Assembly (NCBI GenBank): GCA_020351835.1 | Contig: CP070669.1 | Coordinates: 1,286,378-1,350,377 of the forward strand | Reading direction: 5' to 3' | From: Nitrospirota bacterium | GTDB taxonomy: Bacteria > Nitrospirota > Thermodesulfovibrionia > Thermodesulfovibrionales > BMS3Bbin05 | DNA length: 64,000 nt | Shown here: positions 18,512-52,272 of the stretch, piece by piece | Layout of the letters: every line of letters starts with the position of its first letter | Position numbering within the stretch: position 1 is the stretch's first letter | Position numbers and translations under genes: made by a program | Notes under the pieces: model-generated | What the model was told of the DNA's origin: nothing | Databases searched by the model: none | What the model saw: only the letters and a program-made list of their open reading frames with translations

Positions 18512-18523
18512 ATGTCCTCCAAT

Positions 18524-20047: not shown

Positions 20048-20072
20048 GTATGTCTCTCCTTATCTCCTTTTA

Positions 20073-22019: not shown

Positions 22020-22026
22020 AAGTACC

Positions 22027-22329
22027 CTATCCTCTCAACTCGCTCATCTCATCCACATGTACCGTGGGTTTGTTCCTGAAAAGGGCAACTATGATCGCAA
22101 GCCCTATGGCCGCCTCCGCGGCCGCTACCGCGATTATCATGAACACAAGCACCTGTCCACGCAGGTCCTGCATATAGTGACTGAAAGCCACGAGACTTAT
22201 ATTAACACCGTTGAGCATGAGCTCTACCGAGAGGAACATGATGATGATGTTCCTTCTCATAAGGAACCCGAGCATTCCCAGGACAAACACTATCGCGCTC
22301 AATACCAGATACCAGCTTAAAGGTACCAT
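22027..22329 (-). CDS. nuoK: NADH-quinone oxidoreductase subunit K
   Basis: 100 aa, three-TM ND4L-like, in operon position. Confidence 0.9.
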
Positions 22330-22332
22330 ATC

Positions 22333-22857: not shown

Positions 22858-23417
22858 TGTTTATCATCCCCGCTCTTCTTTCCGCTGAACACGGCCTGGC
22901 CCTCGTATGATTCAAAGTCGACCGACTTCGGCCTCCAGAACCTTTCAAAATATTCTATTCCTTTCTCACCTGCCATGAACTTATCCCAGTTTGACAACAG
23001 TTTATCCTTCGTCATATAGAAATCGTCCCTGCTGTAGTTCGAATACTCGAAGTGTTCTGTAAGGGCTACAGCTCCGTAAGGACATGCCTCCACGCAAAAG
23101 GCGCAATATACACACCTAAGGACCTCTATCTCGTACCTCTCTACTATCTTCTCATGGTCCGGCCCGTCCACAGTATATATGTTTATACACCTTGATGGAC
23201 ATACAGCAGCACAAAGGCCGCATCCGACGCACTTTGCATCACCCGTTACAGGGTTCCTTACAAGTGCATGAAGCCCTCTGAACCCAGGCATCGAATATCT
23301 CTTCTCTTTAGGGTAGCGACGGGTTATCGGCTTTGAGAAGAACCTGCTCAAAGTAAGTGACAGTCCCTTGACTATCTCCCATAGAAAGATCTTCTTTATA
23401 AGTTCATTGACTGTCAT
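22854..23417 (-). CDS. nuoI: NADH-quinone oxidoreductase subunit I (2x[4Fe-4S])
   Basis: Motifs CVGCGLCAAVCP and CVYCAFCVEACP. The ATG at 23417 overlaps the nuoH stop (ATGA). The ORF-track start at 23483 lies inside nuoH. Confidence 0.9.
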   Translation of the reverse strand: MTVNELIKKIFLWEIVKGLSLTLSRFFSKPITRRYPKEKRYSMPGFRGLHALVRNPVTGDAKCVGCGLCAAVCPSRCINIYTVDGPDHEKIVERYEIEVLRCVYCAFCVEACPYGAVALTEHFEYSNYSRDDFYMTKDKLLSNWDKFMAGEKGIEYFERFWRPKSVDFESYEGQAVFSGKKSGDDKQ

Positions 23418-24457
23418 GCCAGTATCTTTATAACCCCTGTTATAAGAATGTTCAGCAACGCAAGAGGTATAAGAAGTTTCCATCCCAATGCCATTACCTG
23501 GTCATACCTGTACCTCGGAACCGTTGCTCTGATCCAGTAGTAGAAGAAGATACATACGTATAGTTTTGCAAGGAATATAAAAAGTCCTATAAAAGGAACG
23601 CTCTCCACAAATGGGACTATCTTTACTATGAAAGGCGGCAGCGTCCAGCCCCCGAGAAAGCACACGACCGCCATACATGCCATGACTATCATTCCCACAT
23701 ATTCACCAAGGAAGAAAAGTGCGAACCTTATACCGCTATATTCCGTAAAATATCCGGCGACCAGCTCATTCTCTGCCTCGGGCATATCAAATGGCGTTCT
23801 GTTCGTCTCCGCAAGAGCGGACACAACGAACACAAAGAACGCTATGATCTGAGGCACGACATACATGCCGGTAGGGTAAGCCGCCTGGGCTTTTACTATG
23901 TCCTGCAGGTTAAGTGAGCCGGCCATGATCATGACACCCACAAGGCTCAGCCCCATAGCAACCTCGTAGCTTATTACCTGGGCAGATGCCCTGAGGCCTC
24001 CGAGGAACGGATATTTCGAGTTCGATGACCATCCCGCAAGTACGATACCGTAAGCCCCGATCGATGACATGGCAAGGATGAAGAGCAGACCGATATTGAT
24101 ATTAGCAACGACAAAACCGTCAAAGAAAGGTATCACTGACAATGAAACGAGCGTTGACATCATTATTATGACCGGTGACACGTAGAAAACGGGCTTGTCA
24201 GCGTTAGCCGGAATAATGTCCTCTTTGAAGAACAGCTTAACGCCATCAGCTATCGGCTGAAGAAGACCATGGAACCCGACTTCCATCGGCCCCATCCTTA
24301 CCTGCATGCGACCTATTGATTTTCTTTCAGCCCACGTCGCGTACATGACATGAAGCATTGCGACACCGACAACAACCGCTATCTTAATTATGATAATGAC
24401 TATATCCAGGAACATATCGAAAAAACCCTCAGACATTATGAACTCGAATATCTTCAT
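23414..24457 (-). CDS. nuoH: NADH-quinone oxidoreductase subunit H
   Basis: 347 aa ND1-like (AERKSIGRMQVRMGP, EAENELVAGYFTEYSG). Confidence 0.9.
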   Translation of the reverse strand: MKIFEFIMSEGFFDMFLDIVIIIIKIAVVVGVAMLHVMYATWAERKSIGRMQVRMGPMEVGFHGLLQPIADGVKLFFKEDIIPANADKPVFYVSPVIIMMSTLVSLSVIPFFDGFVVANINIGLLFILAMSSIGAYGIVLAGWSSNSKYPFLGGLRASAQVISYEVAMGLSLVGVMIMAGSLNLQDIVKAQAAYPTGMYVVPQIIAFFVFVVSALAETNRTPFDMPEAENELVAGYFTEYSGIRFALFFLGEYVGMIVMACMAVVCFLGGWTLPPFIVKIVPFVESVPFIGLFIFLAKLYVCIFFYYWIRATVPRYRYDQVMALGWKLLIPLALLNILITGVIKILA

Positions 24458-27031: not shown

Positions 27032-27045
27032 TTACTTTATATACG

Positions 27046-28305
27046 TCAGTTCACACTACACTTTTTATTCTCTATATGTTCATCAAACTCGTCACTGAAA
27101 TGCTTTATAAAGCTCAGTACCATTCCGGCTGCACCGTCTCCAAGCGGACAGAAGGTCTTACCGGATATATTTGAGGCAACCTCCAGGATAAGCTCAACAT
27201 CACCTCTCCTGCCGAGTCCGTTCTCTATTCTCTCCAGTATGTTCCTCAACCAACCTGTTCCCTCCCTGCATGGGGTACATTTGCCGCACGATTCATGCTC
27301 AAAGAAGTACATAGCCCTCGCGGCAACCTTTACCAGGCACACCGATTCGTCGAACACCATCACTGCACCGGACCCCAGCATACTGCCGCACTTCGGAAGG
27401 CTGACAAAATCCATCTGGCAGTCTATCTTGTCCGGCGGGAGTATAGGAGTAGAAATTCCTCCAGGAATAACAGCCTTAAGGTTCCCTCCGTTCTTGATCC
27501 CTCCGCAGTGATCATAGATTATATCTTTCAGTGATGTACCCATCGGCAGCTCATATACTCCGGGCTTGTTAACAAACCCACTAACACTGTACAGTTTGGG
27601 GCCCGGACAATCAGGGTTCCCTATCTTCGAATATGCATCAGCTCCTATTTCTATGATCAAAGGCAGGTTCGACAGTGTCTCAACGTTGTTCACTATCGTA
27701 GGCTTACCCCAAGCCCCTACGTTGACAGGAAAGGGCGGTTTCAATCTTGGCTGCCCTCTTTTTCCTTCTATAGATTCTATTAAGGCGGTCTCCTCACCGC
27801 AGATGTACGCGCCTGCTCCGCGATGGACCGCGAGGTCAAAGTTTGTTTTGCTTCCCATTATCCCTTCGCCTAATATTCCATCTTCATATGCCTGATCGAT
27901 CGCGTCCTCGAGGATCTTCTTTGCGGCAGGATACTCTGCCCTGAGGTATATATAACCCTGCTCTGCCTGAAGAGCATGTGCGGATATCGCCATCCCCTCG
28001 ATCAACAGATGAGGGTCCTTCTCAAGTATAGGCCTGTCCTTGAACGTCCCGGGCTCACCTTCGTCGGCATTGCAAAGAAGGTACTTGGGGAAGTTCTTGT
28101 CACGCGAAGCAAAATCCCATTTCATACCTGTAGGGAACCCTGCTCCCCCCCTTCCTCTCAGGCCGGCCCTCTTTACTTCGTCTATTATGTCCTCGGGTTT
28201 CATCTTCAGGGCCTTCTTAAGGCTCTTATATCCTCCGGACTTCTTATAGACGCTTATATCAGCGGAGCCAGGTGTATTTATGTTCTTCAGTAAGAAAGTA
28301 TCCAT
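27046..28305 (-). CDS. nuoF: NADH-quinone oxidoreductase subunit F
   Basis: 419 aa with GLRGRGGAGFPTGMKW and ESCGKCTPCREG. Confidence 0.92.
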   Translation of the reverse strand: MDTFLLKNINTPGSADISVYKKSGGYKSLKKALKMKPEDIIDEVKRAGLRGRGGAGFPTGMKWDFASRDKNFPKYLLCNADEGEPGTFKDRPILEKDPHLLIEGMAISAHALQAEQGYIYLRAEYPAAKKILEDAIDQAYEDGILGEGIMGSKTNFDLAVHRGAGAYICGEETALIESIEGKRGQPRLKPPFPVNVGAWGKPTIVNNVETLSNLPLIIEIGADAYSKIGNPDCPGPKLYSVSGFVNKPGVYELPMGTSLKDIIYDHCGGIKNGGNLKAVIPGGISTPILPPDKIDCQMDFVSLPKCGSMLGSGAVMVFDESVCLVKVAARAMYFFEHESCGKCTPCREGTGWLRNILERIENGLGRRGDVELILEVASNISGKTFCPLGDGAAGMVLSFIKHFSDEFDEHIENKKCSVN

Positions 28306-28306
28306 A

Positions 28307-28759
28307 TTATTTATAACCGTTCAGTATCTCGATGATGTTCTTCTCATCAAGGTTCTCATGAAAGTCATCGTTAACAAGCATGGCAGGCGCGGTACCGCAG
28401 GCACCGATACATTCCATTATCACAAGTGTGAACCTTTTATCATCGGTAGTTCCACCGGGCTCAAGACCATATTCTTTCTTAAGAAGGTCAACCAGTGACT
28501 CAGCCCCCATTATCATGCAGGCGACGTTCGTGCATATCTGTATCACGTTACGACCCATCGGCTCGTTATGATACATATGGTAGAAGGTCGCCACACCCTT
28601 AACAGCTGCCGCGGGGACATTGAGGTCGTCCGAGACAGCCTTTAATCCATCCTGAGACAGCCAGCCCTCATCATATTGCTTTGTATGCAGGGCGCCTAAG
28701 AGTTCCGATCTTGTGCTGGGATATCCCTCTTTACGTACCTTCCTGCTCATCTGTCGCAT
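28307..28759 (-). CDS. nuoE: NADH-quinone oxidoreductase subunit E
   Basis: 150 aa thioredoxin-like 2Fe-2S protein (CTNVAC...CIGACGTAP). Confidence 0.9.
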
Positions 28760-29943
28760 TCTCCAAGTACGATATCGATGGTACCGATGTTCGCTATCAC
28801 GTCAGCCAGCATGTGACCAACGGAAAGCCTCGGAAGAACTGATGCATGAACAAATGAAGGTGCCCTTACCCTCATTCTATAGGGCCTTCCGCTTCCGTCG
28901 CTTACGATATAGAAACCCAGTTCCCCCTTCGGTACCTCTGTCGCTACATATATTTCACCCTCGGGAGCGGCCATTTGCCCCTTGGTTATAAGTACAAAAT
29001 GATGTATCAATGATTCCATGTCAGAAAGTACCCTGTCCTTGGCGGGTAATGTGAACTTTGGAGCATCAGGGGCCATTATGGGTCCTTTGGGCATCTGCTC
29101 AATACATTGCTTGATTATCCTGTTCGCCTGCCTTAGCTCTATCATCCTGCAGCGGTACCTGTCATACACATCTCCCTTCTCACCGAGAGGGACTATGAAA
29201 TCGACCTTGTCATACGCATCATACGGGAACCGCTTTCTTATATCGTAATCAACACCGGAACCTCTCAGCGTAGCGCCGGAGAGTCCCCAGTTGATAGCCT
29301 CCTCAGCCGATATTACACCTATACCCTTCGTCCTTTTTAGCCATATCCTGTTCTTATCTATAAGTGTCTCGTATTCGTCCATCCTAGAATCGAACTCCTC
29401 GGTGAACTTATAAAGGCTGTCCAGGAAGTGCTGCGAAACATCGTTCCTTACCCCGCCTATCCTTGGGTAGCTTACCGTGAGCCTTGCACCGCAAAGTTCC
29501 TCGAACAGGTCCAGAAGCCACTCCCTCTCCCTGAAGCTGTAAAGGAACACCGTCATCGCTCCTATATCAAGGGCGTGCGTAGCGACCCAAATGATATGAC
29601 TGCTTATCCTCGTCATTTCAGATACGATCGTACGTATATACTTCGCCCTTTCAGGGGCCTCTATACCGAAGAGTTTCTCCACGGCAACGCAGTAACCAAC
29701 GTTGTTCGACATGGACGATATATAGTCCATCCTGTCCGTCAGGGGGATCGTAGAGTGATAGGTCATCGTTTCAGACAGTTTCTCTATTCCCCTGTGGAGG
29801 TAACCGACATAAGGCGTACATTTCTTTATCGTCTCACCGTCAAGCTCCAGCACCAGCCTCAGAACGCCATGCGTCGAAGGGTGCTGAGGCCCCATGCTCA
29901 GTACAAGTTCTTTAGTGTCGAGACTGTTCTTTATCTCTTCCAT
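28747..29943 (-). CDS. nuoD: NADH-quinone oxidoreductase subunit D
   Basis: 398 aa 49-kDa-like subunit ([14 protein letters not shown]). Confidence 0.92.
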
Positions 29944-30470
29944 TCGTACTTTTTGAACTCCTTGGATTTTTCAAGTACTTCCCTGAAACCCGGCCACTCC
30001 AGTTCATCGCTCGGGCCCTTTGCAGGGTAGTCCTTTCTTAGCGGATGTCCTTCCCAGTCCTCGGGCATAAGTATCCTTCGAAGGTCCGGATGCCCCTTGA
30101 ACTCTATGCCGAACATGTCGTAGCACTCTCTTTCATGCCAGTCGGCACCTATCCATACCGGCACAACAGAGTCTACCGCACAATCATCCTCGCTCACCGC
30201 CACCTTTATGCGTATCATATGTCTATGCTCCATCGAGTAGAGATGATAAACGACGGCAAAGCGGGAGTCCTTCTTTCCAAGGTTGTCAAGACCGCATAGG
30301 TCGCTCAGGTAATCGAATGAAAGCGAGGGATCATCATGGAGGAACCTGAAGATATCCAGTGCCTTTTCCTTTTTGATCGTGACCGATACCTGCCCCCTGA
30401 ACTCAGAGGTATCGATTATCTCATCGGGATATTTTTCCCGCAGTATTTCTGCTACCTGAAGGGGCTCCAT
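29931..30470 (-). CDS. nuoC: NADH-quinone oxidoreductase subunit C
   Basis: 179 aa 30-kDa-like subunit ([26 protein letters not shown]). Confidence 0.9.
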
Positions 30471-30973
30471 CTAATGCGCTCCTTTTTGATTTTTTCCTGC
30501 AGTTTAACTATACCGTTCATGAGTGCTTCAGGCCTCGGAGGGCAGCCCGGTACATAGACATCTACCGGCAAAAAGGAATCAACACCCTCAACAACGCTGT
30601 AAGACCTGAATATACCTCCCGAGCATGCACAGCTGCCCATCGATATCACATATCTGGGTTCCGGCATTTGATCGTAAACCTTCCGTACTATAGGAGCCAT
30701 CTTTTTTGTTACGGTTCCGGCAACTATCATGAAGTCGGCCTGCCTCGGAGACGCCCTGAATATTATCCCGAGACGGTCAAGATCATAGTGGCTGGATCCC
30801 GTCGTCATCATCTCGATTGCACAACACGCGAGCCCAAAGGTCATGGGCCATAAAGATGAGGACCTTCCCCAATTTATCAGCTTATCGAGCGTGGTGATCA
30901 ATGTATTTGCACCCGGTATTATCCTGATGCCTTCTTCTATCTCTACCAGCTCTTTTTGTGTGTCAACGGTCAT
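30452..30973 (-). CDS. nuoB: NADH-quinone oxidoreductase subunit B
   Basis: 173 aa PSST-like subunit ([25 protein letters not shown]). Confidence 0.92.
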
Positions 30974-30994
30974 AAGATATCCTTGTGTATCAGA

Positions 30995-31366
30995 TCATTC
31001 CCACCTGAACGCGTCTTTCCTCCATGCATAGACGTAGCCAACAAGCAGGATGACGATGAAGATCATCATTTCTATGAACGCATAAAGCCCTATCTTATCG
31101 AAAACTATTGCCCATGGATAAAGAAATATAGCCTCAACATCGAATACAACGAAAAGCATTGCTACAACAAAGAACTTTATTGAGAACCTTATCCTCGGTT
31201 CGCCTACAGGCGGTATCCCTGATTCATAAGGCGAAAGCTTTTCCGGATACGGTCTGCGCGGTCTGAAAAGCATTCCGACAAGGAGAGTGCCTATACCTAT
31301 TGCAAATGCTATTACCAGAAAGAACAGGATCGGAAGATAGCTTTCTGGCATATAAGTACCCGGCAT
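30995..31366 (-). CDS. nuoA: NADH-quinone oxidoreductase subunit A
   Basis: 123 aa ND3-like subunit (YESGIPP, FDVEAIFLYPWA). A second in-frame ATG lies 5 codons downstream. Confidence 0.9.
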   Translation of the reverse strand: MPGTYMPESYLPILFFLVIAFAIGIGTLLVGMLFRPRRPYPEKLSPYESGIPPVGEPRIRFSIKFFVVAMLFVVFDVEAIFLYPWAIVFDKIGLYAFIEMMIFIVILLVGYVYAWRKDAFRWE

Positions 31367-31541: not shown

Positions 31542-33218
31542 ATGTCAAATTTTCCTTTGAAGAACATCCTTATAGCTAAGAAATCGATCCATTCACTTAG
31601 CTTCAAGCTTATCTTTGCGATCGGGGGATTGATCCTGGTTGGAAGCCTTTCCTTCTGGTATTCGATCATCCATACAAGCAAGGAAGAGATGCTGAACACG
31701 ACAGCAAGCTTTGCGACCACCAATGTGAACCTGATACAAAAGAGCACGCACCAGTACATGCTGGCAAACAATCTCGAAGACGTCCAGAAAACGCTGGAGA
31801 CGATGGTCTCAGAAGATGCCATAAGCAACATAAGGGTATTCGATTGCAGGGGAAAGATAGCCTTTGCTTCGGACAGGGAAGAAGTGGGAAAGACACTTCA
31901 TGGAAAATCTGAGACATGCAATATCTGTCATGAGGATACCAGCAAGGCCATCGAAACATTGAAGTTCAGCGAATCTGCAATATCCGATCCAAAATGGACC
32001 GTAATTAACAGGGACGGCAAAAGGGTGCTCAGGAGTGTCGTTGCTATCTACAATGAAAAGTCATGTTATACCGCGGCGTGTCACTTCCACCCGGAGGAAA
32101 AGCAAAAACTTGGGATCCTTGAGGCAGATTATTCACTCGCTAATTTTGATCATAAGACCCAGCATCAGAACATAGCTATAGCTACGTTCGGGATAATCTT
32201 TACTGCGGTCCTCTCGGTCATTCTCTGCATAATACTGTGGAATATAGTAATAAGTCCTATTCTTACGATGACAGAGGGAATGGAGATCGCATCAAAGGGA
32301 GACCTTGATCATAAGGTTAACATCAATACCAAGGATGAGCTCGGAATGCTTGCAAAGACGTATAACTCAATGACAAGTGAACTAAAGCACTCCCGTGAAA
32401 AACTTGAGAACTGGGCAAAAGAGCTGGAAAAAGAGGTTGCTATCAAGACAGCCGAGATAAAAAGAGGACAGGAGCAGTATATCCACACCGAAAAACTCGC
32501 TTCCCTGGGAAGGATGGCCGCCGGTGTCGCACATGAACTGAACAGTCCTCTAACAGGCATTGTTACCTTTGCCCACCTGTTGATGGACAGGATACCCGAA
32601 GAGAACAAGATGGACAGGGAGGACCTCGAGGTCATCGTGGAGCAGGCAGAGAGATGCTCCAAGATCATTAAGGGATTGCTCGGTTTCTCGAGGGCAATGC
32701 CAGCTGAGAAGAACGTCGTTGATGTTAACGATATGATAGAGCATGCCATAAACATGATACAGAACCAGGCGAAGTTCCATAACGTAGAGTTTGACGCCGA
32801 CCTTCAAAAGGACCTGCCTGACATAGGCGGGGAATCTTCGCAGATCGAGCAGGTGTTCCTTAACCTTTTTATAAATGCCGCAGACGCGATGAACAATAAA
32901 GGATCGATCCACATCCAGACATCGCAGATAAAGGTAGACGGCAAGCCCTATGTTGAGATCGTTGTATCCGACACCGGGCCCGGCATCCCCGAAGAACACC
33001 TTTCAAGGCTGTTCGAACCGTTCTTTACCACTAAGCCGGTCGGAAAGGGGACCGGTCTCGGGCTGGCCGTAAGTCACGGTATCATCCGAAAGCATGGCGG
33101 CCACATAATCGTAAAAAGCCTCCCCGGCGAAGGTGCCTGTTTCTTTGTCAGGCTGCCGGTACCTAACCCGAACGAACAAGTAAACATTGACAGTGACGAC
33201 CAGCAACAGGAAAGCTGA
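31542..33218 (+). CDS. Membrane sensor histidine kinase with a heme-c-motif periplasmic domain, HAMP, HisKA and HATPase
   Basis: 558 aa. Two TM segments bracket a roughly 160-aa domain containing CNICH (CxxCH) and CYTAACH (Cx4CH). H-box is AHELNSPL. G-boxes are DTGPGI and GTGLGL. Confidence 0.85.
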   Translation: MSNFPLKNILIAKKSIHSLSFKLIFAIGGLILVGSLSFWYSIIHTSKEEMLNTTASFATTNVNLIQKSTHQYMLANNLEDVQKTLETMVSEDAISNIRVFDCRGKIAFASDREEVGKTLHGKSETCNICHEDTSKAIETLKFSESAISDPKWTVINRDGKRVLRSVVAIYNEKSCYTAACHFHPEEKQKLGILEADYSLANFDHKTQHQNIAIATFGIIFTAVLSVILCIILWNIVISPILTMTEGMEIASKGDLDHKVNINTKDELGMLAKTYNSMTSELKHSREKLENWAKELEKEVAIKTAEIKRGQEQYIHTEKLASLGRMAAGVAHELNSPLTGIVTFAHLLMDRIPEENKMDREDLEVIVEQAERCSKIIKGLLGFSRAMPAEKNVVDVNDMIEHAINMIQNQAKFHNVEFDADLQKDLPDIGGESSQIEQVFLNLFINAADAMNNKGSIHIQTSQIKVDGKPYVEIVVSDTGPGIPEEHLSRLFEPFFTTKPVGKGTGLGLAVSHGIIRKHGGHIIVKSLPGEGACFFVRLPVPNPNEQVNIDSDDQQQES

Positions 33219-34647
33219 GGATAAGGAGAGCCATCTGACACCGGCACATATCCTTGTTATTGATGATGAGGAGATCCTTCTGAAAAGCTGCCAGAGATCA
33301 CTCGAGCCTTTGGGGCATACTGTTGTCACTACAAGGTCCCCGGAGGAGGGATTAAAGATTCTGGAGGACCAGAGGTTCGACCTGGTACTTTCCGACCTCC
33401 GAATGCCGCATATGGACGGGCTGGACGTTCTAAGGAACGTAAAAGAGAACTGGCCCGACACAGAGGTAATAATAATAACAGGCCACGGGACGGTAAATAC
33501 TGCCGTATCTGCAATGAAGACAGGGGCTTTCGATTACATCGAAAAACCGTTCACGCCGGATACGCTGAACATAATAGTCGAGAGGGCGCTCAAAACAAGG
33601 CAGATATACATCGAGCACGCTCAGCTCAAAAAAGAAGTAAGGTCCTTCTATATAAAGAACATCATTGGTAAGTCTCCGGCCATGGAGAACGTCTACAAGC
33701 TCATAGATTCTGTAACTTCGACCGCAAGCACAGTTCTGATAACTGGAGAGAGCGGGACGGGAAAAGAGCTAGTTGCCCGTGCCATACATTTTAACAGCCC
33801 CCGGAGCGATGATTCGTTCATGGTACTTGACTGCGGAACACTTTCTGAGAACCTTATCGAGTCAGAGCTTTTCGGCCATATGAAGGGATCGTTCACGGGA
33901 GCTACCGAAAATAAGGTCGGCCTTCTGGAAGCAGCGGATAAGGGGACACTGTTCCTCGATGAGATAGGGAACCTGCCTATGCAGCTCCAGACGAAACTGC
34001 TCAGGGTATTGCAGGAGAAAGAGTTCAGGCCGATCGGTGCCAAGCGTTCGAACAAGGTCGATGTGAGGTTCATAGCCGCTACCAACAGGGACCTTAAGGA
34101 GATGGTAGATAACGGGGAGTTCAGAGAGGACCTCTACTACAGGCTGAACATATTTCCCATCCACGTTCCTTCCCTTAGTGAAAGAAGGGAGGATATCCCT
34201 CTGCTTTCATATCACTTTCTGGGAAAGTTCGAATCAGAGCTCGGACTGAAGGTAGACAATATAGATGCGGATGCCATGAACATTCTGATCAACTACGACT
34301 GGCCCGGCAATGTAAGGGAGCTGGAGAACGCTATACACAGGGCAATGTTATTGAGCGAGACCGGTATCATCACCCCCTCCCAGCTTATCTTTCTGGATGA
34401 AGCGGTCAGGGGAGGCATACCCGGCACGGCTGAAGAGTTAAAAGAGATAAAGAAGAGGTTAAGGTCAAGATCGATCGAGAGCGTCGAAAAGGCATTTGTC
34501 ATAAGTGCCCTGGAAAGGAACGATTGGAACGTGTCAAAGGCTGCCAGGAGCGTTGGTATGCAGAGAACTAACCTGCACGCACTGATCAGGAAGTATGACG
34601 TACCGATGAAGGAAAAGGATGCAGAGGAGCAAGGTGATGAAGCTTAA
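33187..34647 (+). CDS. Sigma-54-dependent response regulator (NtrC family: REC-AAA+-Fis HTH)
   Basis: 486 aa. REC (ILVIDDEE, SDLRMPHMDG, YIEKPF), AAA+ (GESGTGKE, GSFTGA loop, ESELFGH), and a C-terminal HTH (NVSKAARSVGMQRTNLHALIRKY). Confidence 0.9.
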   Translation: MTVTTSNRKAEDKESHLTPAHILVIDDEEILLKSCQRSLEPLGHTVVTTRSPEEGLKILEDQRFDLVLSDLRMPHMDGLDVLRNVKENWPDTEVIIITGHGTVNTAVSAMKTGAFDYIEKPFTPDTLNIIVERALKTRQIYIEHAQLKKEVRSFYIKNIIGKSPAMENVYKLIDSVTSTASTVLITGESGTGKELVARAIHFNSPRSDDSFMVLDCGTLSENLIESELFGHMKGSFTGATENKVGLLEAADKGTLFLDEIGNLPMQLQTKLLRVLQEKEFRPIGAKRSNKVDVRFIAATNRDLKEMVDNGEFREDLYYRLNIFPIHVPSLSERREDIPLLSYHFLGKFESELGLKVDNIDADAMNILINYDWPGNVRELENAIHRAMLLSETGIITPSQLIFLDEAVRGGIPGTAEELKEIKKRLRSRSIESVEKAFVISALERNDWNVSKAARSVGMQRTNLHALIRKYDVPMKEKDAEEQGDEA

Positions 34648-40729: not shown

Positions 40730-41272
40730 ATGGATGATATATCCCTTCATATAATGGACATTATCGAGAACTCCACCCGTGCGGAAGCATCAAGCATATT
40801 GCTCAACATTGTTGTCAATAAGAAAACTAACATGTTGTCCATTGACATAAAAGATAACGGAAGGGGAATGGACAATGAAGAGGTTATCCAGGCTCAGGAC
40901 CCTTTTTATACAACTAAGACCAAGAAGAAGTTCGGGCTTGGCATATCACTTTTGAAGCAGGCATCAGAAGAAGCGGCAGGCACTTTCGCTCTGATCTCCG
41001 ACAAGGGTTCCGGAACGCACATATCCGCAACATTCCAGTACGATCATATAGACAGAAAACCTCTGGGTGACATCGCAAAAACGTTCTATATACTTATAGC
41101 ATCATATCCCGAAGTAGATCTGCTTCTTAGCTATAAGATAGATAACAGGTCTTTCGATATCGATACGGCTGAGCTCAGGAAAGAGCTTGAGGATATTCCA
41201 ATTACGGCACCCAATGTGTTAAAAACCCTAAAGAACCATATAGCCGGCGGTGTCATGACGGTAGAAAGGTAG
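40730..41272 (+). CDS. Stand-alone histidine-kinase-like ATPase (HATPase_c, no H-box)
   Basis: 180 aa. N-box IIENSTRAEA, G1 DNGRGM, FYTTK, G2 GLGISL. Confidence 0.65.
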   Translation: MDDISLHIMDIIENSTRAEASSILLNIVVNKKTNMLSIDIKDNGRGMDNEEVIQAQDPFYTTKTKKKFGLGISLLKQASEEAAGTFALISDKGSGTHISATFQYDHIDRKPLGDIAKTFYILIASYPEVDLLLSYKIDNRSFDIDTAELRKELEDIPITAPNVLKTLKNHIAGGVMTVER

Positions 41273-41282
41273 GTGCTAAGAT

Positions 41283-41663
41283 ATGGCGGACAACAGGATA
41301 CTCGTAATAGACGATGAGGCCATTGTACGCGTAAGCTGCCAGAGGGTCCTGACCCCGGAGGGTTTCGATGTCATTGTTGTACCTTCGGGAAGGGAGGCCA
41401 TAGACAGGCTGGAGAAAGAGAAGTTCGACCTTGTGCTGACCGACCTGAAGATGCCGGATATGGACGGGCTAGAGGTCCTTAAGACCATCAAGTCGAGGTG
41501 GCCGGAGCTCATTGTTATAATCATAACCGGATACGGTACTATCTCAACCGCCGTTCAGGCTATTAAACTGGGCGCGTTCGAATATATCGAAAAGCCTTTC
41601 ACACCCGAGGATATACTTAATATCGTAAAGAAGGCAATCGCTTCTGCTGCAAATGATGCCTGA
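41283..41663 (+). CDS. Single-domain response regulator (REC only)
   Basis: 126 aa: ILVIDDEA, TDLKMPDMDG, IIITGYG, YIEKPF. Confidence 0.9.
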   Translation: MADNRILVIDDEAIVRVSCQRVLTPEGFDVIVVPSGREAIDRLEKEKFDLVLTDLKMPDMDGLEVLKTIKSRWPELIVIIITGYGTISTAVQAIKLGAFEYIEKPFTPEDILNIVKKAIASAANDA

Positions 41664-45287: not shown

Positions 45288-45303
45288 TGGCATGCGCTTT
45301 GCT
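45288..45303 (+). promoter_or_regulatory. Sigma-54 (-24/-12) promoter
   Basis: TGGCATGCGCTTTGCT versus the consensus TGGCACG-N4-TTGCW. The GG-N10-GC spacing is exact, with a single mismatch. It lies 32 nt upstream of the ATG at 45335. Confidence 0.75.
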
Positions 45304-45334: not shown

Positions 45335-46105
45335 ATGTCTAAAGAGAAGTCACGAATATTGGTTCTAGATGATGATCCGGTCGTTACACTGAGCTGCAAG
45401 CGTATCCTTGGTGCAGAAGGTTATGACATCACGACGGTCGATAAAGGTGAGGATGCTCTCAATAAGCTTTCCAAGGAGGAGTATGACCTCCTGATATCTG
45501 ACATTCGTCTGCCCGATATCAATGGAATCACGGTCCTAAAAGAGTCCAAGGTTATCCAGCCTAGCACTGATGTAGTAATAATTACCGGATACCCCACCCT
45601 TGAGGACGCTAAGGAATCGATAAGGCTTGGTGCGTTCGAATATATCGAGAAGCCCTTCACGCCCGATTTCATGATGAACGTCGCAAAGAAGATATTTGAT
45701 AAGAGAGGCTGGATACTTAGGCAGGCCTATATAGAGGAGTTCAAGGATTCGGTAGTCCCCCTTAGGGACCAGAAGAACCCGGTCATATTTTATAAAGAAG
45801 GTATATGGGCCCGCCCGGTGAAGAACGGAGTATGGGAGATGGGCTGTGATATAAGAGATGATATGGTAAGCGGTGAGATGCTTTACGTTGATTACATTAG
45901 AGACCTTGACGTGGTCAAAGCGGGAGAGCCTTTCGCTCGGCTCCTTACAGGATCGGGAAAGATCAGGGAGCTTAACTCTCCGATGACAGCTGAGATCAAG
46001 GAATTGAACCCGAAGGCAAATGATGTCATCATCTCATTGCAGAACGAACATGCATCTGAAGGCTGGCTGGTTTGGCTGGCACGGGTATTCCCACTGGAAT
46101 TATAG
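45335..46105 (+). CDS. Response-regulator receiver fused to a GcvH-like (lipoyl/biotinyl-type) domain
   Basis: REC: ILVLDDDP, SDIRLPDING, IITGYP, YIEKPF. The C-terminal part aligns by eye with glycine-cleavage H (FYKEGIWAR/YSKEHEWLR; GEMLYVDYI...VKAGEPFARLLTGSGKIRELNSPMTAEIKELN; EGWLVWL). Confidence 0.7.
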   Translation: MSKEKSRILVLDDDPVVTLSCKRILGAEGYDITTVDKGEDALNKLSKEEYDLLISDIRLPDINGITVLKESKVIQPSTDVVIITGYPTLEDAKESIRLGAFEYIEKPFTPDFMMNVAKKIFDKRGWILRQAYIEEFKDSVVPLRDQKNPVIFYKEGIWARPVKNGVWEMGCDIRDDMVSGEMLYVDYIRDLDVVKAGEPFARLLTGSGKIRELNSPMTAEIKELNPKANDVIISLQNEHASEGWLVWLARVFPLEL

Positions 46106-46150: not shown

Positions 46151-47014
46151 ATGGCAGGCAACATACTTGTAGTGGATGATGAGCCTGTAGTCATAGTGAG
46201 TTGCGAGAGGATACTGACCCCTGAAGGATATTCCGTAAAGGGTGCTTCTTCCGTTGATGAGGCGATCGGCCATCTTCAGAACGGTGATTACGATCTTGTT
46301 ATCACGGACCTGAAGATGCCTAACAAAGGCGGGCTGGACCTCATCAAGTGGTTAAGGGATAACAACAGTAAGGCCGGCATAGTTGTGATCACCGGATATC
46401 CGTCACAGGAGACGATAAAGGATGCTCTACACATGGGCATCGTAGATTACCTTCCGAAACCTTTCTCGCCGGCACTCCTTATAGACGTAACCGCAAAGGC
46501 AATATCGTTCGTAAAGTCGAAAGGGATCGAAGAGGTCACTTCTGAGGAGCAGGAGATAACTGCCAAAGCCGAGGAGATAAAGAACGTTATCGTATCGAAC
46601 AAGGACAGGCCGGGAGGTCTTATTCCCGTGCTGCAGCAGGTCCAGGAGATACTTGGCTATCTTCCGCCGGCAGTTCTGAAACTTATAGCGCGCGGCCTTA
46701 ACTTACCCGTAAGCGAAGTTCATGGCGTAGTGTCGTTCTATTCTTTCTTCACTATGAAACCAAAGGGCAAGCACAATGTCCGTGTATGCATGGGTACTGC
46801 ATGCTACGTGAAGAGAGCTACCGAGATACTCGATAAGCTGAAAGATATCCTCGGCATAGAAGAGGAGGAAGTAACTGAGGACAAGCAGTTCTCACTTGAA
46901 ACGGTAAGGTGCCTGGGTGCCTGCGGTCTTGCACCGGTCGTGGTGGTCGATCATGATACTCATGGCTCGGTCGATCCGGTCAAAGTGTCTGGCCTGCTTG
47001 AGGAGTACAACTAA
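46151..47014 (+). CDS. Response-regulator receiver fused to a NuoE/HndA-type [2Fe-2S] subunit
   Basis: REC: ILVVDDEP, TDLKMPNKGG, VVITGYP, YLPKPF. A linker is followed by a NuoE fold: LIPVLQQVQEILGYLP, VSFYSFF, VRVCMGTACYV, RCLGACGLAPVVVVD. Confidence 0.85.
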   Translation: MAGNILVVDDEPVVIVSCERILTPEGYSVKGASSVDEAIGHLQNGDYDLVITDLKMPNKGGLDLIKWLRDNNSKAGIVVITGYPSQETIKDALHMGIVDYLPKPFSPALLIDVTAKAISFVKSKGIEEVTSEEQEITAKAEEIKNVIVSNKDRPGGLIPVLQQVQEILGYLPPAVLKLIARGLNLPVSEVHGVVSFYSFFTMKPKGKHNVRVCMGTACYVKRATEILDKLKDILGIEEEEVTEDKQFSLETVRCLGACGLAPVVVVDHDTHGSVDPVKVSGLLEEYN

Positions 47015-47026
47015 AAGGAGGATCTC

Positions 47027-47410
47027 ATGGCAAAACTGACAATAGATGAACTCAAAAAGCTGAAGGAACAATATAAGGACAAGACCCACCTGCGTGAGGG
47101 AGGGTCTACGGCAAAGGTAACGGTCCACATGGGAACATGCGGCCTGGCTGCTGGTTCGAGGGAGATAATGGATGCTCTCCTTGATGAGATCCAGAAGGCC
47201 AATGCATCGGAGGTTATGGTCACTACATCAGGATGTGCCGGTCTCTGCAGCAGGGAACCTATGGTCACTGTTGAAATGCTGGATGAGTCCCCTGTTAAGT
47301 ACGTAGACCTGACGGACGAGAAAATAAGAAAGATCTTTAAGGAACATATACGTGGTGGCAAGGTTGTGGAGGAATACGCTCTGGTAAGAGGATGCGAGAC
47401 ATCCTACTGA
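47027..47410 (+). CDS. HndB-type thioredoxin-like [2Fe-2S] ferredoxin
   Basis: 127 aa: VHMGTCGLAAGS...TSGCAGLCSREPMVTV. Confidence 0.75.
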   Translation: MAKLTIDELKKLKEQYKDKTHLREGGSTAKVTVHMGTCGLAAGSREIMDALLDEIQKANASEVMVTTSGCAGLCSREPMVTVEMLDESPVKYVDLTDEKIRKIFKEHIRGGKVVEEYALVRGCETSY

Positions 47411-47447
47411 TCAAAATGATAAATACCCATTGCTGGGAGGAGAATAA

Positions 47448-49283
47448 ATGGACAAAGTAAGATCAAATGTCATGCTCTGTGGCGGTACAGGATGCATAGC
47501 GACCGGTTCTCTTAAGGTAAAGGATGCCCTTGTTACAGAACTGAAGAAGCATAAGCTCTATGATCAGATAACCGTGACCCTCACGGGATGCAACGGTTTC
47601 TGCGCTCAGGGCCCGCTCGTCACGGTATTTCCCGAAGGTATCTTCTATGAAAAGCTGACCGCGGATGATATACCGTTCCTCGTCGAGGAGCATTTTCTGA
47701 AGGGAAGGCCCGTTGAGAAGTTCATGTACAAGGCACCTGAGGATAAATCGGCGGTACCCGCTATAAGCGAGATACCGTTCTTCAAGCACCAGGTGCTCAG
47801 AGCATTAAGGAACAAGGGAATAATCGATCCTGAAAAGATAGAGGAATACATTGCTCGGGACGGTTATATGGCCGCAGCCAAGGCACTGACCGAGATGAAG
47901 CCTGAAGATGTCGTGAAGGAGATGAAAGAGTCAGGCCTTAGAGGACGCGGCGGTGCCGGATTCCCCACCGGGCTTAAGTGGGAGCTCTGTGCGATGTCTA
48001 AGGGCGACCTTAAATATATCCTCTGTAACGGTGACGAGGGTGACCCTGGTGCATTCATGGACAGAAGTATAATGGAGGCCGACCCTCATGTCGTCCTTGA
48101 GGGAATGATAATAGCGGCCAAGGCCATAGGCGCCTCAAAGGGATATATCTATGTAAGGGCAGAATATCCTCTTGCAGTTGAAAGGCTTCAGAAGGCTATC
48201 GACCAGGCAAAGGACTATGGTCTCCTGGGTGAGAATATCCTTAACACAGGGTTCAATCTTGATATAGAGCTTTATCTTGGCGCTGGGGCTTTTGTCTGCG
48301 GTGAAGAAACAGCTCTGATGAGATCACTTGAGGGTAAGAGAGGTATGCCGATACCGCGTCCCCCGTTCCCGGCCCAGAAAGGTCTGTGGGGAAAGCCTAC
48401 GGTTCTAAATAATGTCGAGACCTACGCTAACATCCCACCTATTATCCTTAACGGCGGTGAATGGTATAAGAGTCTTGGTACCGAGAAATCCACAGGCACA
48501 AAGGTCTTCGCACTTACCGGTGCCGTTAATAATATCGGCCTCATCGAGGTTCCGATGGGTATACCTCTCAGGACCATTATCTACGATATCGGTGGCGGTA
48601 TACGAAAGGGCAGAAAGTTCAAAGCGGTTCAGCTCGGTGGCCCTTCGGGCGGATGTGTTCCCGAGCACCTTCTGGACACGCCTGTAACTTATGAGGATAT
48701 CGTACAGACCGGAGCCATCGTAGGTTCAGGCGGTATGGTCGTTATGGACGATTATAACTGTATGGTAAGCGTTGCACGTTTCTTTCTCGACTTCACGACT
48801 GAAGAGTCATGTGGTAAATGCCCGCCATGCAGGATCGGGACCAAGGTCATGAGGGACAAGCTGGCTGATATTACTGAGGGACGGGGGCAGGAAGGAGATG
48901 TCGAGCTTCTCCAGGACCTTGCAAAGGATATTATCAATACATCACTTTGCGGACTTGGCCAGACCGCACCTAACCCTATCCTTACAACGATAAAATATTT
49001 TAAGGACGAGTATGAATCACATATTCATGATAAATGGTGCAAGGCCGGTGTATGTACTGACCTTGCGACGTTCTACATCGACGAGGAAGCATGTAAGGGC
49101 TGCACGGTATGCGCAAAGAACTGTCCGCAGGAATGTATCGCCGGTGAAAAGAAGAAACCACATATCATCGATCAGGAAAAATGTGTCAAGTGCAGGACAT
49201 GCTACGAAAAGTGTAAGTTCAATGCCGTAAAGGTAGGGCCTGCGAACATGTTCGACAAGAAGGATGAGGAGGTGCAGGTATGA
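47448..49283 (+). CDS. HydB/HndC-type NuoF-like flavoprotein (2Fe-2S + FMN/NAD(P)H + N3 cluster + 2x[4Fe-4S])
   Basis: 611 aa: CGGTGC...GCNGFCAQGP; GLRGRGGAGFPTGLKW; SCGKCPPCRIG; CKGCTVCAKNCP and CVKCRTCYEKC. Confidence 0.85.
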   Translation: MDKVRSNVMLCGGTGCIATGSLKVKDALVTELKKHKLYDQITVTLTGCNGFCAQGPLVTVFPEGIFYEKLTADDIPFLVEEHFLKGRPVEKFMYKAPEDKSAVPAISEIPFFKHQVLRALRNKGIIDPEKIEEYIARDGYMAAAKALTEMKPEDVVKEMKESGLRGRGGAGFPTGLKWELCAMSKGDLKYILCNGDEGDPGAFMDRSIMEADPHVVLEGMIIAAKAIGASKGYIYVRAEYPLAVERLQKAIDQAKDYGLLGENILNTGFNLDIELYLGAGAFVCGEETALMRSLEGKRGMPIPRPPFPAQKGLWGKPTVLNNVETYANIPPIILNGGEWYKSLGTEKSTGTKVFALTGAVNNIGLIEVPMGIPLRTIIYDIGGGIRKGRKFKAVQLGGPSGGCVPEHLLDTPVTYEDIVQTGAIVGSGGMVVMDDYNCMVSVARFFLDFTTEESCGKCPPCRIGTKVMRDKLADITEGRGQEGDVELLQDLAKDIINTSLCGLGQTAPNPILTTIKYFKDEYESHIHDKWCKAGVCTDLATFYIDEEACKGCTVCAKNCPQECIAGEKKKPHIIDQEKCVKCRTCYEKCKFNAVKVGPANMFDKKDEEVQV

Positions 49284-51763
49284 TAGAGCTCACTATCGAC
49301 GGAAAAAAGGTTTCTGTACCTAAAGGCACAACAATAATAAATGCTGCAAGGGAGATCGGTATCTATATACCGAACCTCTGTTACGATAAGCGTCTTAAAC
49401 CATACGGCGGATGCAGGCTATGTGTTGTAGAGGTCGAGGGCCAGAGAAAACTGCTTGCCGCATGCTCTACCCCGGCCGAGAACGGCATGGTGGTGCAAAC
49501 GAACACACCTACCCTTCAGAAGGCAAGAAAGACCGTGCTGGAACTGCTTCTTATCCATCACCCGCTGGATTGCCCGGTGTGTGACAAGGCCGGTGAGTGC
49601 AAGCTCCAGGACCTTGCATATGAGTACGGTTCAACAGAAAGCCGCTTTGCCGGTGAAAGAAAGAATGATCCGGAGGCGACAGACAGTCCGCTTATAGTAA
49701 GGAATCCCAACAGATGTATTCTTTGCGGTAAATGCGTAAGGGTTTGCAGAGATCACCAGGGTGTCGGTGCGATAAATCTCATAGGCAGAGGGTTCAAGAC
49801 GAAGATCAGCCCCGCCTTTGAAGAGACCCTCGATTGCGAGTTCTGCGGACAGTGCATAGATGCATGCCCGGTAGGAGCTCTCGGAAGCAAGCCTTATGCT
49901 CATAGCGCAAGGGCATGGTTCCTTGAGGAACAGGACAACATCTGCCCGTACTGCTCTGTAGGTTGTACTGTCACTTATGACATAAGGGAAGAAAAGATAC
50001 TTCGCGCAAGAGGTGTGGAAGGGAAGGGGGTGAACAACGGAGACCTCTGCGGAAAGGGAAGGTTCGGTTTCGATTTTATTTATTCCGACAACAGGCTAAG
50101 GAAACCCCTTATGAAGAAGAACGGCGCACTCGAGGAAACATCATGGGAAGAGGCGCTGTATTTCGTATCTAACAAACTTAATGAAATAAAGGAGAGCAAG
50201 GGCGGTGATTCCATAGGAGCGATAGGATCACCTCGCGCAACGCTTGAGGATAATTACATCTTTCAGAAGTTCATGAGGGATGTAGTAGGAACGAACAACA
50301 TAGATTCTTCTGCGAGGTTAGGGTACGCAAAGGTCGTTAAGGGCATAGAGATGTCGTTCGGCATCAAATCTCAGCCGATCAAGCTGGATTCACCGATAGG
50401 CAAAGATTCCGTTCTTGTTGTCGAATCGGATATAACCTCTACACATCCTATATGGGGACTGCAGTTCCTTCAGGCAATGAGAGAGGGATCTAAACTGATC
50501 GTAGTTGAGCCGAGGGAAACAAAGCTTGCGCGGAATGCGTCAACATGGCTAAAGATGAGGCCTGGAACATCTGTAGCCTTCCTGAACGGCCTTGCAAAGC
50601 TCGCCATCACAGAGGGACTTGTTTACAATAACGAAACAATTATGTCAACGGAGGGCTATGACGAACTGGAAAAGACATTAAAGGACTATACTCCGGAGAA
50701 GGTTTCGGAGATCACGGGAATTGATAAGGAAGTGTTCGTTAAGAGCGCATTGGAGTTCCTCAAGTCTGAATCCAGAATGATCGCCCTGACCCTTACAAAC
50801 TCTGAGAACAGCAAGGGTCTTGATACTATCCTTGCCGCGGCCAATCTGGTAATGCTGACGGGGGACGGGCCAGCCGCTCTTCAGATACCGTCCGACTATT
50901 CGAATACGACCGGCATGTGGCAGATGGGGATATCCCCGGACCATGGTGCAGGACTGAAGGACATCGAGGGAGAAGCGGGCAAGAACGTTGCCGATATGCT
51001 TTATAGATCGGGCGAGCTGAGCGCCCTCTACATAATGGGCGAGGACCCGATCGTTACATTCCCCGATTCATCATCCATCAGTGACACCCTTGGTTCTCTC
51101 GACCTTCTTGTTGTTCAGGACATCAGGCTGACAGAAACGGCCAAGCTTGCTGATGTTGTCCTCCCGGCCGCCAGCTGGGGAGAGAAGGACGGCACCTTTA
51201 TTAACGGCAGCGGCCTGCCACAGCCGATAAAGAAGATGGTTCCTGTGACCGGGGACTCAATCCCCGACTGGCAGATAATGAGGAACCTTGCCCGTGTCAT
51301 GCAGGCGGATCTTGGTGCGGCCGATCTTCGCTCCATACAGAACGAGATAGCCGAGATCGGAGTTGAAGAGGGTGTGAAGAAATGGAAGTTCAATCCCGTT
51401 AAGCAGGAATTCGGAGAAAACGTCGATACGAGCTATCCTATCATGCTAGTCACCGGAAACGTAATGCAGCACTCGGGAGAGCTCTCGGTCATGTCAAAGA
51501 GCCTTAGCCACGTCCTTTCTGACGCGTTCATACAGATCAACCCGGCTGATGCCGAGAAAAGCAAAATTCATGACGGAGCATTTGTAAAGATCACGTCTTC
51601 AAGGGGTGAGGTGTTCATAAAGGCGAGGGTATCGGACGAGGTGCCAGAGGGAATGCTGTTCGTCCCGGTCCACTTCCCTCATGCGAGGGTTAACTCTCTG
51701 ACATATGTATCCGCTAACGGAAGTAACTCCCTGACCGCCGTAAAAGTGGAGCCCCAGAACTAG
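49280..51763 (+). CDS. NuoG-paralogous Fe-S / MopB-like subunit lacking the Mo-ligand Cys/Sec-His
   Basis: 827 aa, colinear with the nuoG in this window. Contains HPLDCPVCDKAGEC, CILCGKCVRVC, CEFCGQCIDACP and CPYCSVGC. The position of ARV(U/C)H in formate dehydrogenases reads ARLGY. Confidence 0.75.
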   Translation: MIELTIDGKKVSVPKGTTIINAAREIGIYIPNLCYDKRLKPYGGCRLCVVEVEGQRKLLAACSTPAENGMVVQTNTPTLQKARKTVLELLLIHHPLDCPVCDKAGECKLQDLAYEYGSTESRFAGERKNDPEATDSPLIVRNPNRCILCGKCVRVCRDHQGVGAINLIGRGFKTKISPAFEETLDCEFCGQCIDACPVGALGSKPYAHSARAWFLEEQDNICPYCSVGCTVTYDIREEKILRARGVEGKGVNNGDLCGKGRFGFDFIYSDNRLRKPLMKKNGALEETSWEEALYFVSNKLNEIKESKGGDSIGAIGSPRATLEDNYIFQKFMRDVVGTNNIDSSARLGYAKVVKGIEMSFGIKSQPIKLDSPIGKDSVLVVESDITSTHPIWGLQFLQAMREGSKLIVVEPRETKLARNASTWLKMRPGTSVAFLNGLAKLAITEGLVYNNETIMSTEGYDELEKTLKDYTPEKVSEITGIDKEVFVKSALEFLKSESRMIALTLTNSENSKGLDTILAAANLVMLTGDGPAALQIPSDYSNTTGMWQMGISPDHGAGLKDIEGEAGKNVADMLYRSGELSALYIMGEDPIVTFPDSSSISDTLGSLDLLVVQDIRLTETAKLADVVLPAASWGEKDGTFINGSGLPQPIKKMVPVTGDSIPDWQIMRNLARVMQADLGAADLRSIQNEIAEIGVEEGVKKWKFNPVKQEFGENVDTSYPIMLVTGNVMQHSGELSVMSKSLSHVLSDAFIQINPADAEKSKIHDGAFVKITSSRGEVFIKARVSDEVPEGMLFVPVHFPHARVNSLTYVSANGSNSLTAVKVEPQN

Positions 51764-52201: not shown

Positions 52202-52272
52202 TTGCAAAGCCTCCTTGTTGCTTTTTTATATACAATTTAAAACCCCGCGCGATATAACGTCATTATATACGA

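Follow-up and report, generated by a model that had tools for sequence, protein, structure and literature searches.

The closest described counterpart of the system analysed here is 'Nuo-Bfu', an arrangement in which BfuABC replaces NuoEFG in the nuo operons of Deferribacteres, Proteobacteria, Planctomycetes and Nitrospirae. Nuo-Bfu is a genomic prediction (Schut et al. 2022, PMC9304861). Two further proteins are useful for comparison. In NfnA of C. saccharolyticus (Csac) the pterin site is incomplete, no pterin density was seen, and the A2-A4-A5 branch has been called an evolutionary remnant (PMC11829005). In FdsA, a formate dehydrogenase (FDH) subunit of R. capsulatus, Cys386 is the Mo ligand, His387 the active-site His and Arg587 the catalytic Arg (PMC7171172). 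We analysed a protein of 827 amino acids (aa), BfuA, encoded at 49280..51763 (+) of a 64,000-nucleotide stretch of a Nitrospirota genome (contig CP070669.1; hereafter the window). BfuA has five complete Fe-S sites and a vestigial pterin (MopB) domain, and it belongs to a module of four subunits: a receiver-NuoE fusion (BfuC), an HndB-like protein, BfuB and BfuA. We favour, at a probability of roughly 60%, the explanation that BfuA is the electron wire of a Bfu-type module for NADH and ferredoxin, with complex I as the sink and menaquinone as the third substrate.

BfuA is a NuoG-like subunit by its open reading frame (ORF), Pfam, NCBIfam, alignment, and an AlphaFold2 (AF2) model searched with Foldseek. 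Pfam places Fer2_4 at residues 1-76, NADH-G_4Fe-4S_3 at 83-122, Fer4_Nqo3 at 137-201 and Molybdop_Fe4S4 at 219-269. These are followed by the pterin part, Molybdopterin at 272-672 (182 bits) and Molydop_binding at 723-808 (62 bits), encoded at 50093..51703 (+). The ORF call and Pfam thus bear out what the initial annotation of this DNA had read from the letters: a full N-terminal Fe-S set and a MopB-type domain. The cluster ligands are Cys34/45/48/62 for the 2Fe-2S site, His94 and Cys98/101/107 for the His-ligated 4Fe-4S site, Cys146/149/152/196 and Cys156/186/189/192 for the two ferredoxin-type 4Fe-4S sites, and Cys222/225/229/257 for the 4Fe-4S site of the MopB domain. All 19 Cys of the protein are Fe-S ligands, and these together with His94 are kept in every one of 58 aligned sequences. 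An [FeFe]-hydrogenase H-cluster (Fe_hyd) domain is absent by Pfam, as had been claimed, and the matches to hydrogenases span residues 1-205 only (phmmer, PDB). Pfam also finds no domain of the NfnL/GltD type (Pyr_redox, Fer4_20).

Family models place the protein with NuoG. It passes NCBIfam TIGR01973 NuoG (479.6 bits against a cutoff of 470.05) and fails TIGR01591 Fdh-alpha (466.5 bits against a cutoff of 666.25). The window's own nuoG is 35% identical over the full length. The top PDB matches by phmmer are FdsA-type NAD-dependent FDHs (E 1e-137 to 1e-132). The 120 closest homologues share 57-100% identity, and all those with a name are from Nitrospirota/Thermodesulfovibrionia; a Dissulfurispira sp. 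also carries a family member (P0101). Their public names are inconsistent and include 'putative formate dehydrogenase', 'formate dehydrogenase alpha subunit', 'molybdopterin-dependent oxidoreductase' and 'NuoG', the last being the NCBI name of the exact 827-aa protein. The suspicion that such a protein could be mislabelled as an FDH alpha subunit was therefore justified.

The residues that make an FDH are missing. At the place where FDHs carry the Mo ligand, selenocysteine (Sec) or Cys, and the neighbouring His, BfuA has Gly348-Tyr349 (nucleotides (nt) 50321-50326) within the motif NIDSSARLGYAKVV (50297..50338, +). The aligned place in the window's nuoG (24458..27031, minus strand) reads NNIDSIARSFYIPAQ; on translation the BfuA motif is exactly as first quoted. 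E. coli FdhF, translated from MG1655, reads NNVDCCARVUHGPSV there, and its U140-H141 aligns to Gly348-Tyr349. By phmmer, R. capsulatus FdsA NNTDTCARVCHSPTG aligns to the same motif, with Cys386/His387 opposite Gly348/Tyr349. The catalytic Arg is gone as well: Ser538 (nt 50891-50893), in the motif ALQIPSDYSNTTGM (50876..50917, +), aligns to R333 of FdhF, R587 of FdsA and the Arg of the consensus PLRGQNNVQG.

These replacements extend across the family. Of its 120 homologues 104 matched the motif search, every one with Gly at the ligand position and nearly all with AR[FL]G[YF]. In the 58-sequence family alignment Gly348 is invariant and Tyr349 occurs in 49. The ORF holds no in-frame stop able to encode Sec, and the protein has no Cys after residue 257. 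Because all 19 Cys are Fe-S ligands and none lies beyond that residue, there is no alternative thiolate ligand elsewhere in register. The absence of a Mo-ligating Cys/Sec and of a catalytic His, which the initial annotation had asserted, is thus upheld and extended to the Arg. These alignments show that the predicted protein has lost FDH chemistry, and reading it as dead for formate is well supported.

Whether the pterin itself is also gone is a separate matter. As a reference we used 22 bona fide FDH alpha subunits that carry the K-C-H-R signature; in the alignment, 89 columns reach a conservation of 90% or more among them. BfuA has retained the conserved residue at 54 of these columns, compared with 48 for the window's nuoG and 32 for E. 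coli NuoG. The 35 positions lost from BfuA cluster in the active-site and pterin-side motifs and include, in FdhF numbering, C136, U140, H141, G174, N176, T300, H302, 328-339, R460, R581 and K679. The profile scores (PF00384/PF01568, in bits) of BfuA, 182/62, lie in the range of NuoG proteins: 163/41 for the window's nuoG, 167/39 and 138/53 for the NuoG proteins of two related nuo operons (L087 and L091, the latter P0129) and 64/31 for E. coli NuoG. A true FDH of the same architecture (P0137) scores 277/105. Retained are the MopB 4Fe-4S ligands and Lys259, which in FDHs bridges that cluster to the pterin. In the AF2 model the four-domain MopB fold is intact, including the cap domain, with a predicted local distance difference test (pLDDT) value >90 there. 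Foldseek superposes the model best on FdsA and FdhF (template modelling (TM) score 0.68-0.79; root-mean-square deviation (rmsd) 3.4 Å to FdhF) and then on mycobacterial NuoG.

The MopB domain of BfuA thus keeps its fold, and the comparison shows that Sec/Cys ligand, His and Arg are all missing from it; in this it matches the NuoG of complex I and the Fdh/NuoG-like domain of NfnA. The molybdopterin site had been called dead. For catalysis this stands. For pterin binding, we infer with good support that the cofactor is absent, because conserved positions are lost and the profile scores are those of NuoG.

The partner subunits identify the module. BfuB, a NuoF/HydB-like protein of 611 aa (47448..49283, +; Pfam, phmmer, motifs), combines a 2Fe-2S domain at its N-terminus with an FMN/NADH domain and, at the C-terminus, a 2x[4Fe-4S] domain; its stop overlaps the start of BfuA by 4 nt. 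HydB of T. kivui matches it at E 1e-258 over residues 4-594, and the B subunit of NiFe-Bfu, StnB and NfnB match as well. BfuB carries the Bfu motifs CNGDEGDPGAFMDR (DEGDPGAFMDR) and GAGAFVCGEETALM (GAGAFVCGE). The NuoF of the window (27046-28305) has motifs of the non-bifurcating type, DEGEPGTFKDR and GAGAYICGE. These NADH/FMN motifs separate bifurcating BfuB from non-bifurcating NuoF/FdsB/HoxF (Schut et al., PMC9304861). Domains and motifs together show in BfuB the full cofactor-binding architecture of electron-bifurcating HydB/NfnB. Upstream lie the small thioredoxin-like 2Fe-2S protein of the HndB type (127 aa; 47027..47410, +; Pfam, NCBIfam) and BfuC, a receiver domain fused to a NuoE-type 2Fe-2S subunit (287 aa; 46151..47014, +; Pfam, NCBIfam).

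By its genes the module belongs to the Bfu family, with BfuC and BfuA encoded alongside a BfuB of full architecture and motifs, and in the framework of PMC9304861 it is a predicted BfuABC enzyme. By domain content alone the A subunit would be filed under 'Type 1 Fdh-Bfu', yet its FDH site is absent. Pfam finds no third-substrate domain in the four subunits, as the initial annotation had noted. P0121, the best representative (1405 aa), was considered as a fusion to such a domain and rejected: it consists of two NuoG-like proteins in tandem, head to tail.

Compared with described systems, BfuA is a mosaic of familiar parts. With NuoG/Nqo3 it shares the domain order, the ligands of N1b/N5/N4/N7-type clusters, a MopB-like domain without Mo ligand and the passing of TIGR01973. 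It differs in its partnership with a bifurcating-type F subunit, in its distance from the window's nuoG (given above), in a MopB domain more FDH-like in fold and score than that of E. coli or Thermus NuoG, and in its place outside the nuo operon: the gene is not flanked by nuoF and nuoH, and a separate nuoG is present in the nuo operon. With FdsA (R. capsulatus 6tg9, M. extorquens 7vw6) and the alpha subunit of Type 1 Fdh-Bfu it shares the five-cluster N-terminus and the four-domain MopB fold; however, Cys386/His387/Arg587 are Gly/Tyr/Ser in BfuA, several pterin-side motifs are replaced, and no FdsD/FdhD partner is conserved near the module.

NfnA and StnC (NfnABC 9bov, StnABC 8oh5) are likewise Bfu A subunits with an Fdh/NuoG-like domain and an incomplete pterin site. 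They differ in that their N-terminal NfnL/GltD-like FAD/NADPH domain, which BfuA lacks, supplies the third substrate site; the PDB matches 9bov_A and 8oh5_C cover only residues 95-671 of BfuA and are aligned in their C-terminal part, from residue 562/563 onward. HndABCD and HydABC share the gene order of NuoE-like, HndB-like, NuoF-like and large Fe-S subunit, and HydB has an architecture nearly identical to that of BfuB over its full length, but the large subunit of our module has a MopB domain instead of the H-cluster domain.

Relatives of BfuA were drawn from a search of 1.84 billion cluster representatives, and the 150 nearest were examined for the Cys-His-Arg signature. Only 22 carry it; most do not. 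In a neighbour-joining (NJ) tree with 100 bootstraps the family is a clade at 100 and is placed among Cys-less NuoG-like sequences, with bootstrap values of 1-8 at the deep nodes. We therefore rejected the tree as an arbiter between 'NuoG paralogue' and 'degenerate FdhA' and turned to the genes around the nearest relatives outside the family, whose context is more informative.

Here the link to complex I appears. P0124 (40% identity, BLASTP) is the gene at the NuoG position of locus L087, where the order is NuoE, BfuB with a fused HndB-like domain, NuoG-like and then NuoA-B-CD-H-I-J-K-L-M. The first three subunits of this locus are 48%, 60% and 40% identical to those of the window's module, compared with 34%, 49% and 34% to its canonical NuoE/F/G. 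P0129 (42%) lies between nuoD and nuoH in L091, and P0128 is found in a NuoE-BfuB-NuoG-like operon on a short contig. Two NuoG-like genes, P0123 and P0125 (43% and 42% identity), are orphans; none of their called neighbours encodes NuoE or NuoF. That BfuA is a NuoG paralogue, as proposed, agrees with its identity to the window's nuoG and with TIGR01973, and it can be refined: its closest relatives are the NuoG-position subunits of Bfu-type complex I operons. In L091 (1-18294) the space between nuoD and the NuoG-like gene holds a DRTGG gene, HATPase_c_2, a second DRTGG gene, PHP, HATPase_c, NuoE, an HndB-like gene and a 1016-aa NuoF-GltD-like fusion. The same accessory set is also found beside family modules in L004, L005 and L141.

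Within the family the module is repeatedly found divergent from nuoA (L019, L020, L025, L077, L086, L092, L093, L103, L112, L114 and L141). The intervening space usually holds a HAMP histidine kinase, joined in some loci by a sigma54 response regulator, and the window shows this layout too, with insertions. In two metagenome contigs, L141 (739-5145) and L114 (66-4538), the adjacent operon reads nuoA-B-C-D, a gene for a 150-aa cyclic nucleotide (cNMP)-binding protein, and nuoH-I-J, with gaps of 100-160 bp. These two loci are the most telling: the operon holds no nuoE, nuoF or nuoG, and the only genes resembling NuoEFG on the contigs are those of the family module. The same cNMP-binding gene stands between nuoD and nuoE in L092 (Ca. 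Magnetoovum). In L021 (4699-12457) nuoD, a nuoI-like 2x[4Fe-4S] gene, a 149-aa ORF, REC-NuoE, BfuB and BfuA follow each other on the same strand; nuoB/C had no matches on this locus.

Across 26 module loci the conserved neighbours are regulators only (REC, HATPase_c, HATPase_c_2, DRTGG, PHP), with no catalytic partner among them. Some metagenomic contigs (L124, 1075-10996; L123; L126) have two BfuB-BfuA pairs in succession, or else an additional BfuA-like gene, 50% identical, immediately upstream of REC-NuoE; such layouts suggest tandem duplication of the module. A different variation was seen in complex I-like operons of Deltaproteobacteria-type metagenome-assembled genomes (L030, about 5600-16900; L037; L038). 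There the nuoG slot holds an FDH alpha subunit that contains Sec and whose active site is intact (CARL*HSS, PLRGQNNVQG), and a 638-aa gene stands in place of nuoE/F, which suggests that these operons encode a formate-linked complex I-like enzyme.

From these comparisons we propose the following mechanism. The BfuBC core would co-oxidise NADH and reduced ferredoxin, or run in reverse, and mid-potential electrons would pass from it along the clusters of BfuA. BfuA, which is very probably a non-catalytic wire of the NuoG type and not an FDH, would bind no catalytic Mo/W-pterin and act as electron wire and docking scaffold. Its MopB-like domain would be structural or serve docking, as in NuoG, with the MopB 4Fe-4S cluster off the path or a reservoir. 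The electron sink would be the Q-module of complex I (NuoI/NuoB/NuoCD) with the membrane arm, and the third substrate menaquinone. We read the acceptor in this way because of the gene context of the relatives, namely the pairing with nuo, including operons that lack nuoEFG. The module would then be a detached 'Nuo-Bfu' N-module encoded in a separate, divergent operon, and here, where the canonical NuoEFG is also present, it would serve as an alternative input module. The initial annotation had left the substrate of the module open. That was too pessimistic, given that the relatives' gene context points to complex I, and hence to menaquinone; that the module does feed complex I we rate at about even odds.

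The module resembles the predicted Nuo-Bfu enzymes in all three subunits: B is of the Bfu type and has the extra Fe-S domains, C is of the NuoE type, and A, of the NuoG type, combines five clusters with a MopB domain that is non-catalytic. The nearest relatives of these subunits (L087, L091) stand in exactly that arrangement. The module differs in its separate operon divergent from nuo, the receiver on BfuC, a lead gene of the REC-GcvH type and a nuo operon that keeps canonical NuoEFG. BfuABC within a 14-gene nuo cluster, replacing NuoEFG, is thus not what the window contains.

The operon begins with this lead gene (45335..46105, +), which encodes a 256-aa protein with a receiver domain fused to a GcvH-like domain without a conserved lipoyl-lysine. 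The GcvH-like match is weak: E. coli GcvH is matched at E 0.024, and Pfam rates GCV_H as 'weak' in the orthologues. A lipoyl protein was considered as third substrate and rejected, since the match is weak and the lipoyl-lysine position is not conserved among 10 orthologues; the product is unlikely to carry a lipoyl group. A sigma54-type promoter-like site, TGGCATGCGCTTTGCT (45288..45303, +), ends 31 nt before the ATG at 45335. It is the sole match to the strict sigma54 motif in the whole 64-kb window, and matches lie at the same relative place in L004 (6003) and L005 (3816). Upstream of nuoA the strict motif was not found. A HATPase_c protein (40730-41272) and a stand-alone receiver (41283-41663), together at 40730..41663 (+), recur beside the module in relatives. 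A HAMP histidine kinase (31542-33218) and a sigma54-dependent response regulator (33187-34647), together at 31542..34647 (+), lie between nuo and the module, as in relatives. The fused receivers, the extra REC/HATPase genes and the sigma54-like site suggest that the module is regulated. A literature search on the accessory DRTGG/PHP/HATPase genes and on Thermodesulfovibrionia NuoEFG found nothing specific.

The canonical 14-gene nuo operon (17069..31366, -) runs from nuoA (30995-31366) through nuoN (17069-18511) and is divergent from the block of kinase and module, with about 18 kb between nuoA and the BfuA gene. Along the window, nuoN to nuoA are followed by the histidine kinase, the sigma54 regulator, a first insertion, the HATPase_c gene, the REC gene, a second insertion (BNR, membrane and PMT genes) and then the module (45335-51763). 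Beyond it a DsrE-like gene (51836-52207, -) converges on the operon end, followed by the Fe-S assembly genes SufC and SufB/D (52788-54742, +). The DsrE-like gene was considered as a partner and rejected because it is absent from the conserved neighbours of the 26 clustered loci. Elsewhere in the window (9096-9797, +) a gene encodes a protein with a divergent 4Fe-4S mono-cluster domain (Fer4_19) and two CDGSH iron-sulfur domains.

Several observations weigh against a wire that serves complex I. Many family loci have no nuo genes within 10 kb. The synteny between module and nuo does not extend beyond one bacterial class, and inheritance of the gene order could account for it. L141 and L114, which lack nuoEFG, have a near-identical layout, represent about one lineage and are contigs only. 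Canonical nuoEFG are present in the window's nuo operon, which makes a second N-module unnecessary, and we know of no case of two interchangeable N-modules. The deep nodes of the NJ tree have no support. The MopB fold is intact and structurally nearer to FDHs than to E. coli or Thermus NuoG, which leaves room for a cofactor or an unexpected ligand. Finally, Nuo-Bfu is itself only predicted, and a literature search found no paper on it besides PMC9304861.

These observations give room to other explanations. The one we take most seriously, at perhaps one chance in four, is a stand-alone soluble Bfu enzyme: the clusters of BfuA would lead to a partner encoded elsewhere (of the Hdr/DsrC, thioredoxin, rubredoxin or another type), or the enzyme would carry out a tightly regulated equilibration of NADH and ferredoxin, and the proximity to nuo would be inherited order. 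The absence of a conserved catalytic partner in the operon, whose conserved neighbours are regulators only, fits this, as do the many loci without nuo genes within 10 kb and the NuoEFG that complex I already has here, and Bfu enzymes whose third-substrate subunits are separately encoded or unknown have been described (PMC9304861). Such an enzyme does not, however, account for nearest relatives of all three subunits inside complex I operons, or for the repeated divergent pairing with nuo, also where nuoEFG are lacking; moreover, exchange between NADH and ferredoxin without a third partner would be endergonic or would waste the ferredoxin potential. A redox-sensing signalling complex, which would read the NADH/ferredoxin state and pass it on through the fused receivers and the associated kinase- or phosphatase-like proteins, is improbable. 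The receivers on BfuC and on the GcvH-like protein, the company of REC, HATPase_c, HATPase_c_2, DRTGG, PHP, the histidine kinase and the sigma54 regulator, and the missing catalytic third site would all suit it. But the cofactor ligands of the full electron path and the Bfu catalytic motifs are strictly conserved, the same regulator set occurs within the complete complex I operon of L091, where the subunits are evidently enzymatic, and the receivers mean more simply that the enzyme is the regulated target.

The pterin domain itself allows two further explanations. It could bind a pterin or another dinucleotide cofactor without a protein metal ligand, as arsenite oxidase does, and catalyse another reaction. 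We consider this very unlikely. The confidently modelled four-domain fold, its superposition on FdhF at an rmsd of 3.4 Å, and the conserved proximal 4Fe-4S site with Lys259 would permit it, and in one relative (L004) FdhD lies two genes downstream. Against this, the FDH positions near the pterin and active site, from G174 to K679, are replaced, the scores are those of NuoG proteins, and the window's canonical nuoG keeps a similar number of FDH positions. FdhD occurs in only 2 of 26 loci, and we therefore discounted it as a sign of a live pterin site; the window ORFs that were scanned include no moa/moe/mob genes. Some database names imply that BfuA is a genuine FDH alpha subunit, belonging to a Type 1 Fdh-Bfu enzyme; this is hardly credible. 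Its best PDB matches in sequence and fold are indeed FdsA-type FDHs, and true Fdh-Bfu operons of the same gene order exist at 33-40% identity. These true FDHs, however, strictly keep ARL(C/U)H and PLRGQNNVQG, whereas BfuA lacks the Sec/Cys, His and Arg, its family has Gly at the ligand position wherever the motif search matched, and its TIGR01591 score is below the cutoff.

To our knowledge, every complex I has a dead MopB domain, so that finding one in a NuoG-like protein is nothing unusual. Among Bfu enzymes, too, an example was already known in NfnA. What is new is a Bfu module, conserved throughout Thermodesulfovibrionia, with an A subunit that has no third-substrate site, a receiver domain fused to the NuoE-type subunit, and a repeatedly observed divergent position next to complex I operons, whether or not these contain nuoEFG. 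The family also carries a warning for annotation: counting its members as FDHs would wrongly assign formate metabolism to these sulfur-cycling bacteria.

If the module feeds complex I, it would give independent genomic support to a complex I that confurcates ferredoxin and NADH, the so far predicted 'Nuo-Bfu', with the added twist of a detachable, receiver-controlled input module that coexists with the canonical one. It would bear on the driving force for proton pumping in menaquinone-based anaerobes and on how lithoautotrophs obtain reduced ferredoxin by reverse electron flow. More tentatively, and with the odds against it, Thermodesulfovibrionia may possess a phospho-regulated, exchangeable second N-module that docks on the same NuoBCDI and membrane arm and is the sole N-module in some lineages. 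If so, a cell could switch its complex I between oxidation of NADH only and confurcation of NADH and ferredoxin, and, in reverse, proton-motive force and menaquinol could drive the reduction of ferredoxin for use in autotrophy.

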